Shown piece after piece: positions 36,520-39,292 of a stretch of DNA of 64,000 nt; position 1 is the first letter of the stretch, and each line of letters opens with the position of its first letter. The DNA is from Escherichia coli. Its GTDB lineage: Bacteria > Pseudomonadota > Gammaproteobacteria > Enterobacterales > Enterobacteriaceae. The position numbers were made by a program, and so were the translations under genes. The DNA lies in NCBI RefSeq assembly GCF_022846255.1, contig NZ_AP025682.1; one strand, 5' to 3'. The notes beneath the pieces are model-generated. The model was not told the origin of the DNA. It saw only the letters and a list, made by a program, of their open reading frames with translations, and made no database searches.

Positions 36520-37919
36520 ACACTCGCCAGCTACTGAGCGTCGGTATCGATATCGGCACCACCACCACCCAGGTGATTTTCTCCCACCTGGAGCTGGTTA
36601 ACCGTGCGGCGGTGTCGCAGGTGCCGCGCTACGAATTCATCAAACGCGAAATTAGCTGGCAAAGCCCGGTGTTCTTTACCCCTGTCGATAAACAGGGTGG
36701 TTTAAAAGAAGCGGAACTGAAAACCTTAATCCTCGAGCAATATCAGGCTGCGGGCATTGCGCCGGAAAGCGTTGATTCTGGTGCCATCATCATCACCGGT
36801 GAAAGCGCGAAAACCCGCAACGCTCGCCCGGCGGTGATGGCGCTCTCCCGGTCGCTGGGCGATTTTGTCGTCGCCAGCGCCGGGCCGCATCTCGAATCCG
36901 TGATCGCCGGTCACGGTGCCGGGGCGCAAACCCTTTCTGAACAACGGCTGTGTCGGGTACTGAATATCGATATCGGCGGTGGCACTGCGAACTACGCCCT
37001 GTTCGATGCCGGAAAAATCAGCGGCACTGCCTGCCTCAACGTCGGTGGTCGCCTGCTGGAAACCGACAGCCAGGGGCGTGTGGTTTACGCTCATAAACCG
37101 GGGCAGATGATTGTGGATGAGTGCTTCGGCGCAGGCACCGAAGCCCGTTCGCTGACCGGCGCGCAGCTGGTGCAGGTTACCCGGCGGATGGCAGAGCTGA
37201 TTGTCGAAGTGATTGACGGGACGCTTTCGCCGCTCGCGCGGGCATTGATGCAAACCGGTTTGCTGCCCGTAGGTGTTACGCCCGAAATCATTACGCTTTC
37301 TGGCGGCGTTGGCGAATGTTATCGCCACCAGCCCGCCGACCCGTTCTGTTTTGCCGATATTGGCCCGCTTCTGGCAACGGCGCTGCATGACCATCCGCGC
37401 CTGCGTGAGATGAACGTGCAGTTTCCGGCGCAAACCGTGCGCGCCACGGTGATTGGCGCGGGTGCACATACCCTTTCGCTCTCTGGCAGCACAATCTGGC
37501 TGGAGGGCGTACAACTGCCGCTGCGCAACTTGCCGGTGGCGATCCCAATTGATGAAAAGGATCTGGTGAGTGCCTGGCAACAGGCGCTGATTCAGCTGGA
37601 TCTTGATCCTAAAACTGACGCGTACGTGCTGGCGCTTCCCGCCTCGCTGCCTGTGCGTTACGCCGCGGTACTGACGGTCATCAACGCGTTGGTCGATTTC
37701 GTCGCGCGTTTTCCGAATCCGCATCCCCTGCTGGTGGTGGCCGGGCAGGACTTTGGTAAAGCTCTGGGCATGTTGTTGCGCCCACAGCTACAACAACTCC
37801 CGTTGGCAGTCATTGACGAAGTGATTGTCCGCGCGGGGGACTATATCGACATTGGTACGCCTCTTTTTGGCGGATCGGTTGTGCCGGTGACGGTGAAATC
37901 ACTCGCATTTCCTTCCTGA
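36516..37919 (+). CDS. eutA: EutA ethanolamine ammonia-lyase reactivase (467 aa)
   Basis: ORF track; 4-bp overlap with eutH. Confidence 0.92.
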   Translation: MNTRQLLSVGIDIGTTTTQVIFSHLELVNRAAVSQVPRYEFIKREISWQSPVFFTPVDKQGGLKEAELKTLILEQYQAAGIAPESVDSGAIIITGESAKTRNARPAVMALSRSLGDFVVASAGPHLESVIAGHGAGAQTLSEQRLCRVLNIDIGGGTANYALFDAGKISGTACLNVGGRLLETDSQGRVVYAHKPGQMIVDECFGAGTEARSLTGAQLVQVTRRMAELIVEVIDGTLSPLARALMQTGLLPVGVTPEIITLSGGVGECYRHQPADPFCFADIGPLLATALHDHPRLREMNVQFPAQTVRATVIGAGAHTLSLSGSTIWLEGVQLPLRNLPVAIPIDEKDLVSAWQQALIQLDLDPKTDAYVLALPASLPVRYAAVLTVINALVDFVARFPNPHPLLVVAGQDFGKALGMLLRPQLQQLPLAVIDEVIVRAGDYIDIGTPLFGGSVVPVTVKSLAFPS

Positions 37920-37930
37920 GGGAACGACTT

Positions 37931-39292
37931 ATGAAACTAAAGACCACATTGTTCGGCAATGTATATCAGTTTAAGGATGTAAAAGAGGTGCTGGCTAAAG
38001 CCAACGAACTGCGTTCGGGGGATGTGCTGGCGGGCGTTGCTGCGGCAAGCTCACAGGAGCGCGTGGCGGCAAAGCAGGTGTTGTCGGAAATGACCGTAGC
38101 GGACATCCGCAATAATCCGGTGATTGCCTATGAAGATGACTGCGTGACGCGGCTGATTCAGGACGATGTTAACGAAACGGCCTACAACCAGATTAAAAAC
38201 TGGAGCATCAGCGAACTGCGTGAGTATGTCCTGAGCGACGAAACCAGCGTTGACGACATTGCCTTTACTCGCAAAGGGTTGACCTCGGAAGTGGTCGCGG
38301 CGGTGGCGAAGATCAGTTCTAACGCGGACCTGATCTACGGCGCGAAGAAAATGCCGGTAATCAAAAAGGCCAATACAACTATTGGTATTCCGGGCACCTT
38401 CAGCGCCCGTTTGCAGCCAAATGACACCCGTGACGACGTGCAAAGTATCGCTGCGCAAATCTACGAAGGGCTTTCCTTCGGGGTGGGCGATGCGGTGATC
38501 GGCGTCAACCCGGTGACGGACGACGTGGAAAACTTAAGCCGCGTGCTGGACACCATCTACGGCGTGATCGACAAATTCAACATCCCAACTCAGGGCTGCG
38601 TACTGGCGCACGTCACCACCCAGATCGAAGCGATTCGTCGCGGCGCACCGGGCGGGCTGATTTTCCAGAGTATTTGCGGCAGCGAAAAAGGGCTGAAAGA
38701 GTTTGGCGTAGAGCTGGCGATGCTCGATGAAGCACGCGCAGTGGGCGCGGAGTTCAACCGTATCGCCGGGGAAAACTGTCTCTACTTCGAAACCGGACAA
38801 GGCTCGGCGCTATCCGCTGGCGCTAACTTCGGCGCAGACCAGGTGACGATGGAAGCACGTAACTATGGGCTGGCGCGTCATTACGATCCGTTTATCGTCA
38901 ACACCGTGGTCGGCTTTATTGGGCCGGAGTATCTCTACAATGACCGCCAGATTATCCGTGCGGGCTTAGAAGATCACTTTATGGGTAAGCTGAGCGGCAT
39001 CTCTATGGGCTGTGACTGCTGCTACACCAACCACGCTGACGCTGACCAGAACCTCAACGAAAACCTCATGATCCTGCTCGCCACCGCAGGCTGCAACTAC
39101 ATCATGGGGATGCCGCTGGGCGATGACATCATGCTCAACTATCAGACCACGGCATTCCACGACACTGCCACTGTGCGTCAGTTACTGAATCTGCGTCCGT
39201 CACCGGAGTTTGAACGCTGGCTGGAAAGCATGGGCATTATGGCAAACGGTCGCCTGACCAAACGGGCGGGCGATCCGTCACTGTTCTTCTGA
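37931..39292 (+). CDS. eutB: EutB ethanolamine ammonia-lyase large subunit (453 aa)
   Basis: ORF track; only 11 bp after eutA. Confidence 0.95.
   Translation: MKLKTTLFGNVYQFKDVKEVLAKANELRSGDVLAGVAAASSQERVAAKQVLSEMTVADIRNNPVIAYEDDCVTRLIQDDVNETAYNQIKNWSISELREYVLSDETSVDDIAFTRKGLTSEVVAAVAKISSNADLIYGAKKMPVIKKANTTIGIPGTFSARLQPNDTRDDVQSIAAQIYEGLSFGVGDAVIGVNPVTDDVENLSRVLDTIYGVIDKFNIPTQGCVLAHVTTQIEAIRRGAPGGLIFQSICGSEKGLKEFGVELAMLDEARAVGAEFNRIAGENCLYFETGQGSALSAGANFGADQVTMEARNYGLARHYDPFIVNTVVGFIGPEYLYNDRQIIRAGLEDHFMGKLSGISMGCDCCYTNHADADQNLNENLMILLATAGCNYIMGMPLGDDIMLNYQTTAFHDTATVRQLLNLRPSPEFERWLESMGIMANGRLTKRAGDPSLFF

Follow-up and report, generated by a model that had tools for sequence, protein, structure and literature searches.

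Escherichia coli K-12 MG1655 carries a cryptic prophage, CPZ-55, between the ethanolamine utilization genes eutA and eutB. Is the same junction occupied in the DNA studied here, and what does its state say about the origin of the strain and the history of the operon? The window, by which we mean the whole stretch of 64,000 nucleotides that was analysed, very probably contains an ordinary intercistronic junction within the intact long eut operon of a non-K-12 E. coli, and this junction doubles as an unoccupied attB for IntZ-type elements. The position of CPZ-55, the 8-bp repeat at its ends, the prevalence of about 8% and the Eut- phenotype of interrupted strains are published and already known. 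The main finding confirms a non-K-12 E. coli source with an intact, predicted-functional eut operon, and otherwise matters very little.

The junction and its two flanking genes comprise the following features:

36516–37919, plus strand: eutA, ethanolamine ammonia-lyase reactivase, 467 amino acids (ORF list and profile NF007991).
37931–39292, plus strand: eutB, ethanolamine ammonia-lyase large subunit, 453 amino acids (ORF list and profile NF011649).
37920–37930, plus strand: eutA-eutB intercistronic spacer of 11 nt, GGGAACGACTT (read in the sequence).
37918–37923, plus strand: probable eutB Shine-Dalgarno sequence GAGGGA, overlapping the eutA stop codon (inferred from the sequence).

Both gene assignments are supported by NCBIfam profiles. 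The EutA profile NF007991 scores 1066.6 bits against a cut-off of 799 and covers residues 1–467 of 467, and the EutB profile NF011649 matches full-length with 663.4 bits (cut-off 554). The junction reads GCA TTT CCT TCC TGA GGGAACGACTT ATG AAA CTA AAG, in which TGA (37917–37919) is the eutA stop codon and the first ATG (37931–37933) is the eutB start; the interval 37919–37931 begins with the final A of the stop codon and ends with the A of the start codon. The original prediction, which had placed the two codons 11 bp apart, is exact on this point. According to the ORF list, neither an integrase nor any other ORF lies between the two genes. eutA is followed immediately by eutB, with no intervening gene, as expected of the long (EUT1-type) enterobacterial eut operon.

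The surrounding operon is preserved as a whole:

27642–42480, plus strand: complete 17-gene eut operon, eutSPQTDMNEJGHABCLKR (ORF lists and NCBIfam).

All 17 products match NCBIfam equivalog or subfamily profiles above the curated cut-off, and the genes form contiguous ORFs on one strand. The ten upstream ORFs encode EutS, P, Q, T, D, M, N, E, J and G; EutH is the upstream neighbour of the eutA/eutB pair, and EutC, EutL, EutK and EutR are found downstream. Every gene is an intact ORF in the expected order and no frameshift or stop was seen, with the starts of eutS, eutM and eutK placed according to the beginning of the profile alignments. Transcription from the eutS promoter would continue unbroken across eutBCLK into eutR, the last gene of the operon, which encodes the activator; reaching eutR would close a positive feedback loop. 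At the level of translation, eutB is probably coupled to eutA termination because its Shine-Dalgarno sequence overlaps the eutA stop codon, judging solely from this geometry. A small hairpin is predicted in both the MFE and the centroid folds, in which UUUCCUU (37908–37914) pairs with the Shine-Dalgarno segment GAGGGAA (37918–37924). Its pairs never vary among the compared sequences, so that covariation is uninformative. The hairpin would be opened by ribosomes that finish translation at the eutA stop, consistent with coupling. Given unbroken transcription from the eutS promoter and the probable coupling of eutB, the source strain is predicted to use ethanolamine as a nitrogen source when B12 is available, a capacity relevant to fitness in the gut and urinary tract.

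What would occupation of the junction look like? The annotation of MG1655 (NC_000913.3) places the ‘cryptic prophage CPZ-55’ at 2558691–2565480 (6,790 bp) between eutB (b2441) and eutA (b2451), in agreement with the position given when the junction was first described. MG1655 does not share the 11-bp junction, its eutA stop and eutB ATG being 6,801 nt apart. The CPZ-55 genes intZ and yffL–yffS lie on the strand opposite to eut, and MG1655 and BW25113 carry 6.8 kb of these oppositely oriented prophage genes between eutA and eutB. NEB10-beta matches the structure of MG1655 at this locus. BW25113 is unable to use ethanolamine as a nitrogen source and grows again after scarless removal of the prophage; the same study, from 2024, classes W3110 as eut+ and BW25113 as eut- (PMC11334477). 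Further literature deals with the functional consequence of eut interruption (PMC7617246).

In MG1655 the ends of CPZ-55 are marked by an 8-bp direct repeat, CTTCCTGA. One copy forms the end of eutA, including its stop codon, and the other lies just before the 11-nt spacer. The published duplication, written TCAGGAAG on the other strand and placed immediately after the eutA stop (PMC6379469), agrees with CTTCCTGA. A phage attachment core had been proposed as the signature to look for at the junction, and the octamer is indeed found, twice in MG1655 and once in the window:

37912–37919, plus strand: CTTCCTGA, single-copy core of the attachment site of CPZ-55 and other IntZ-family elements (unoccupied attB, from comparison with MG1655).

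This core spans the last two codons of eutA and its stop. In the window, the 40 nt on each side of it are identical to the outer (bacterial) arms of K-12 attL/attR, and positions 37880–37960 are identical both to the empty site of DH5alpha and to the outer arms of MG1655. Searches with CPZ-55 DNA and its nine proteins against the 64-kb window gave no match at E <= 1e-3 (blastn, tblastn). With the core present once between matching arms, and no integrase or element DNA in the window, the junction is an unoccupied attB of CPZ-55 and IntZ-family elements. IntZ is a tyrosine integrase (PHROG 1); the structure of attL and attR, together with clean loss of the element in W3110 and DH5alpha, suggests that this enzyme recombines attB.

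The uninterrupted junction had also been taken to indicate a non-K-12 (or cured) background. The non-K-12 assignment stands by virtue of sequence divergence; the junction as its indicator does not, since empty sites are found within K-12 itself. In W3110 (NC_007779.1), eutA and eutB are 11 nt apart and the empty site lies on K-12 flanks. A DH5alpha assembly likewise has an empty site, with 0 mismatches to MG1655 in 2,777 nt covering eutA, spacer and eutB, and XL1-Blue is reported to be without CPZ-55 (PMC11148124). Because these three strains have an empty site, the empty junction alone cannot discriminate K-12. A K-12 derivative that had lost CPZ-55 by precise excision would show exactly the junction of W3110, DH5alpha and XL1-Blue (PMC11148124; PMC11334477), but such an origin is extremely improbable for the window, which differs from MG1655 at 91 positions over the same 2,777 nt where DH5alpha differs at none. 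These differences, 43 in the 1,404 nt of eutA and 48 in the 1,373 nt of spacer and eutB (3.1–3.5% divergence), are far from K-12 near-identity. Across the operon, identity to MG1655 is 96.1–96.8%, and of the 5,426 complete E. coli genomes, those of the B2 strains LF82 and NRG857c come closest to the window over 24 kb (98.5%). The predicted non-K-12 background rests on divergence from MG1655, and the junction is not diagnostic. Absence of CPZ-55 should be regarded with caution as a marker of K-12 versus non-K-12 origin, as K-12 sublines differ at this site.

Which of the two states is older can be addressed with outgroups. A degenerate pattern representing EutB codons 1–17 was run against one genome per species and yielded 35 loci. 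Every one of these species representatives, which belong to about nine enterobacterial genera (among them Citrobacter, Klebsiella, Salmonella (arizonae), Escherichia, Yokenella, Pluralibacter, Pseudocitrobacter and Intestinirhabdus), has eutA directly upstream of eutB, and the spacer GGGAACGACTT is identical base for base (35/35). One C. koseri assembly contains frameshifts further up in eutA. Since the EutB pattern could bias this sample, a second set of contigs was picked by the EutA protein alone (76–97% identity to the window). It includes S. enterica, E. albertii and seven further lineages, and the spacer is 11 nt long in 9/9; the only change in it, C to T at 37928, is seen in just two lineages (loci L045 and L046/L047). 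In addition, close relatives of K-12 with 99.6% identical flanks lack the CPZ-55 insert. Because the outgroups are uninterrupted, parsimony supports the view that direct adjacency of eutA and eutB is ancestral and that the K-12 insertion is derived. The original prediction had called the operon ancestral, and the same junction in the 35 representatives and the nine EutA-picked lineages bears this out.

The uninterrupted arrangement is also the majority state of E. coli. Of 5,426 complete genomes, 4,964 (about 91%) align across the junction in one piece with a 1.1-kb probe; such an alignment would also bridge any insertion no longer than about 1 kb. CPZ-55 of the K-12 type is in place in 213 genomes of the complete set, and an IntZ-family integrase gene abuts eutB in 394 (about 7–8%), close to the 8% occupancy that was reported in 2019 for 638 genomes. 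Occupied sites fall into at least two sequence types, CPZ-55 and a 2EC1-type island. In strain 2EC1, an 8.5-kb island is bounded by the same octamer, CTTCCTGA, duplicated at both ends; its integrase region has 88.7% nucleotide identity to the CPZ-55 counterpart, and as cargo it carries genes for a murI-like racemase and a gadC-like antiporter, along with a decarboxylase pseudogene and IS elements. A uropathogenic strain with a ‘novel prophage’ at the eutA/eutB site has been reported (PMC6652756), and the locus is scrambled by IS903B in a third strain.

Two further origins of the empty junction are to be weighed against these counts. First, a non-K-12 lineage could formerly have held an IntZ-family element and lost it by precise excision, in which case the present state would be secondarily restored. 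Precise excision leaves no scar, and therefore ‘never occupied’ and ‘cleanly lost’ look alike at the junction. The site is certainly reused, as the 7–8% of complete E. coli with an IntZ-type integrase beside eutB attest, and clean loss of the element is documented within K-12. Nevertheless, we consider restoration quite unlikely: positive evidence for it is lacking, the junction is base for base that of the 35 representatives and of most other sampled lineages, and parsimony is on the side of a site that was never occupied. Second, a real prophage could have been collapsed out of the window during assembly. The likelihood of such an artefact is negligible, for the junction is the canonical one of thousands of independent complete genomes and the sequence is without irregularities.

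A separate observation concerns the immediate surroundings of the site. attB lies inside a block of roughly 125 nt that is near-invariant across genera, synonymous sites included:

37838–37962, plus strand: near-invariant cross-genus nucleotide block with the junction at its centre (alignments; weaker conservation continues to about 38031).

When the window is aligned with 32 species representatives, 37838–37962 is nearly invariant while the flanking third-codon positions vary freely. A count over 23 sequences without indels, drawn from different genera, gives 33 invariant third-codon positions out of 36 in the block and 34 out of 236 in 700 nt of flanking sequence (Fisher p = 2e-20). Within eutA alone, where the EutB search pattern imposed no constraint, the count for the block is 25 of 27 (p = 1e-16). 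Non-Escherichia loci share on average 83.1% identity with the window over the whole operon (sd 6.3%, 40-nt bins), and 99.2–99.9% in the bins from 37840 to 37920, which cover 37840–37959. Among the EutA-picked lineages, identity to the window is 73–87% in the flanks, 86–99% in the block and 92–100% in its core at 37881–37962. Most eut genes show elevated conservation over their first 45 nt or so, and a segment of eutH (35293–35342) is nearly invariant. Only for eutB, however, does 99% identity extend over the 90 nt that precede the start. Two stretches of the operon stand out as the most conserved, the eutH start and the one that contains the integration site.

What the block might encode was approached from several sides. 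Rfam 15 gave nothing relevant in 37600–38300 at E <= 10 and no match at gathering score in the whole window; the sole permissive match, to a viral snoRNA model (E = 4.6), lies outside the block at 38125–38195. Folding of the block and five sub-segments on both strands produced z-scores of -1.2 to +0.2, none better than -1.2. In the MFE structure on 28 sequences, 29 of 39 predicted pairs are invariant and one changes on both sides, so little variation is available. A sigma-70 scan of 37500–38400 returned 0 sites, and strings resembling sigma-54 and RfaH ops elements in the block region do not match the consensus by eye. Comparison with the regions upstream of eutS and eutR for a possible EutR site revealed no shared motifs beyond chance. 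On the antisense strand, a 49-aa ORF starting with TTG is without a Shine-Dalgarno sequence; a good one accompanies an ATG inside this ORF, at 37908, which is preceded by AGGAAGGAA, and this ATG is lost in L045 and L046/L047, the most divergent lineages. Ahead of the eutB ATG, its frame stays open over 38 codons. An EutA-EutB fusion by -1 frameshifting was rejected, as a canonical slippery heptamer is missing and divergent lineages differ in the residues that would form the linker. Homogenization of the flanks by mobile elements is unlikely as well: the block has identical boundaries in every genus, and what the elements have in common with the site is limited to 8 bp plus imperfect similarity. 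A metagenome scan for non-canonical junction variants yielded one contig only, which the analysis already included. In a limited search, no relevant literature was found on an internal promoter, sRNA, coupling signal or ultraconserved element at eutA/eutB. The block is not mentioned in the literature that could be searched and is apparently undescribed, but a search of this limited extent does not prove novelty.

The most likely reading, for which we see an about even chance, is that the block is an extended translation-initiation and coupling region of eutB, the gene of the catalytic subunit. An mRNA processing or stabilizing element and an antisense small ORF (from the ATG at 37908) are alternatives. 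A broader proposal is more tentative and less likely than not: an element of 125–190 nt with the junction at its centre, under strong nucleotide-level purifying selection across Enterobacteriaceae, would be a cis-acting RNA or DNA signal, so far undescribed, that governs eutBC expression and serves IntZ-family elements as a landing pad. Candidates for such a signal would be an extended translational-coupling or enhancer structure, an mRNA processing and stabilizing site or, less likely, the antisense small ORF. IntZ-family elements may have evolved toward the invariant block as a universal landing pad; its invariance would offer a reason why elements with different cargo reuse the exact 8-bp core. 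If the proposed cis-acting signal is real, insertion would split this element as well as block transcription. The block could matter modestly, with the last 27 codons of eutA and the first 10–30 codons of eutB as a candidate region for post-transcriptional control of ethanolamine ammonia-lyase.

How does the locus compare with known systems? The uninterrupted EUT1 operons of W3110, E. coli Nissle 1917 and Salmonella enterica have the 17-gene order of the window, and W3110 and S. enterica (contig L041) also share the 11-nt eutA-eutB spacer. From these operons the window differs in sequence only (about 3.5% from K-12; at most 98.5% identity over 24 kb to complete E. coli genomes). The operons of W3110, Nissle 1917 and Salmonella enterica are experimentally Eut+ (PMC11334477, PMC7617246), a phenotype that is predicted for the source of the window. 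With regard to the interrupted strains MG1655, BW25113 and DH10B, the window carries the attB that matches their attL and attR, with identical core and arms. In those strains a 6,790-bp element on the opposite strand splits the operon, while the site in the window is empty and intZ–yffS are absent. Like e14 at icd or P4-like integrases at tRNA genes, CPZ-55 targets the 3′ end of a conserved gene, here within exceptionally conserved DNA, and rebuilds it: its core overlaps the final eutA codons and stop, and the duplicated core restores the frame, as in other elements that target 3′ ends. In contrast to e14 and P4-like elements, exact identity between the CPZ-55 att ends is confined to 8 bp, accompanied by imperfect similarity. 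Its target also differs from theirs in being intercistronic and inside an operon, so that insertion is polar on the downstream genes though both ORFs are left undamaged.

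CPZ-55 is polymorphic among K-12 strains. The prophage is present in MG1655, NEB10-beta, MC1061 and ER1709, whereas the empty 11-nt eutA–eutB junction lies on K-12 flanks in the W3110 reference (NC_007779.1) and in a DH5alpha assembly (NZ_CM151409.1), the latter being identical to MG1655 across 2,777 nt.

When the 24 kb at 26000-50000 of the window were compared with 5,426 complete E. coli genomes, the top match reached 98.5%, in the phylogroup B2 strains LF82 and NRG857c. For 1.1 kb spanning the junction, identity reached 99.7% in FDAARGOS_497. These values suggest a lineage which is either poorly represented or mosaic. 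Within the operon, alignment with MG1655 fails only in the eutG–eutH intergenic region (35124-35292), which contains a Box C-like repeat, cccctcgcccctttggggagagggttagggtgagggg, and whose length varies by strain: MG1655 has 216 nt, strain 102651 has 116 nt and the window has 169 nt.

The empty junction is located within a strongly conserved segment, and a Chi sequence is found upstream of it:

37838-37962, weaker to about 38031: near-invariant nucleotide block in cross-genus comparison, running from the 3′ end of eutA through the spacer into the 5′ end of eutB
37730-37737, + strand: Chi sequence GCTGGTGG, within eutA, about 180 nt upstream of the eutA–eutB junction

Across genera, 33 of the 36 third-codon positions in the block are invariant, compared with 34 of 236 in its flanks. 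Nothing in the block (37838-37962) matches Rfam or resembles a promoter, and it shows no significant fold. The Chi sequence is kept in the compared lineages. Conservation at gene starts is also seen elsewhere in the operon: over roughly their first 45 nt, most eut genes have a cross-genus nucleotide identity of 0.90-0.998, higher than the approximately 0.82 of gene bodies, and the first 50 nt of eutH (35293-35342) are nearly invariant across 14 non-Escherichia loci.

The frame of eutB is open for 38 codons 5′ of its ATG (37817-37930) and is -1 relative to eutA; this stretch harbors neither a canonical slippery heptamer nor an alternative start codon. Predicted EutA–EutB (792-aa) and EutH–EutA (763-aa) fusions occur among the database homologues (P0093-94, P0006-10), and these are probably assembly frameshifts.

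An IntZ-family integrase adjoins eutB in 394 of the 5,426 genomes, and only 213 of those carry the K-12-type CPZ-55. In strain 2EC1 (NZ_CP047571.1; 12959-21488 of its comparison locus), a distinct 8.5-kb island occupies the CPZ-55 attB and shares the core CTTCCTGA. Its integrase is IntZ-like (88.7% nucleotide identity across the integrase region), and its cargo comprises murI-like and gadC-like genes and a decarboxylase pseudogene, together with IS1 and ISKpn26. In strain 102651, IS903B scrambles the locus and both eutA and eutB are truncated.

Within CPZ-55 (coordinates of the MG1655 locus), YffO (9112-9528) matches the small-terminase PHROG phrog_1482 (E = 5.5e-13), and the seven proteins other than YffO and IntZ gave no PHROG match. 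IntZ (5859-7067) is at most 43% identical to known-phage integrases (phiEt88 and the HK620/IME10 type).
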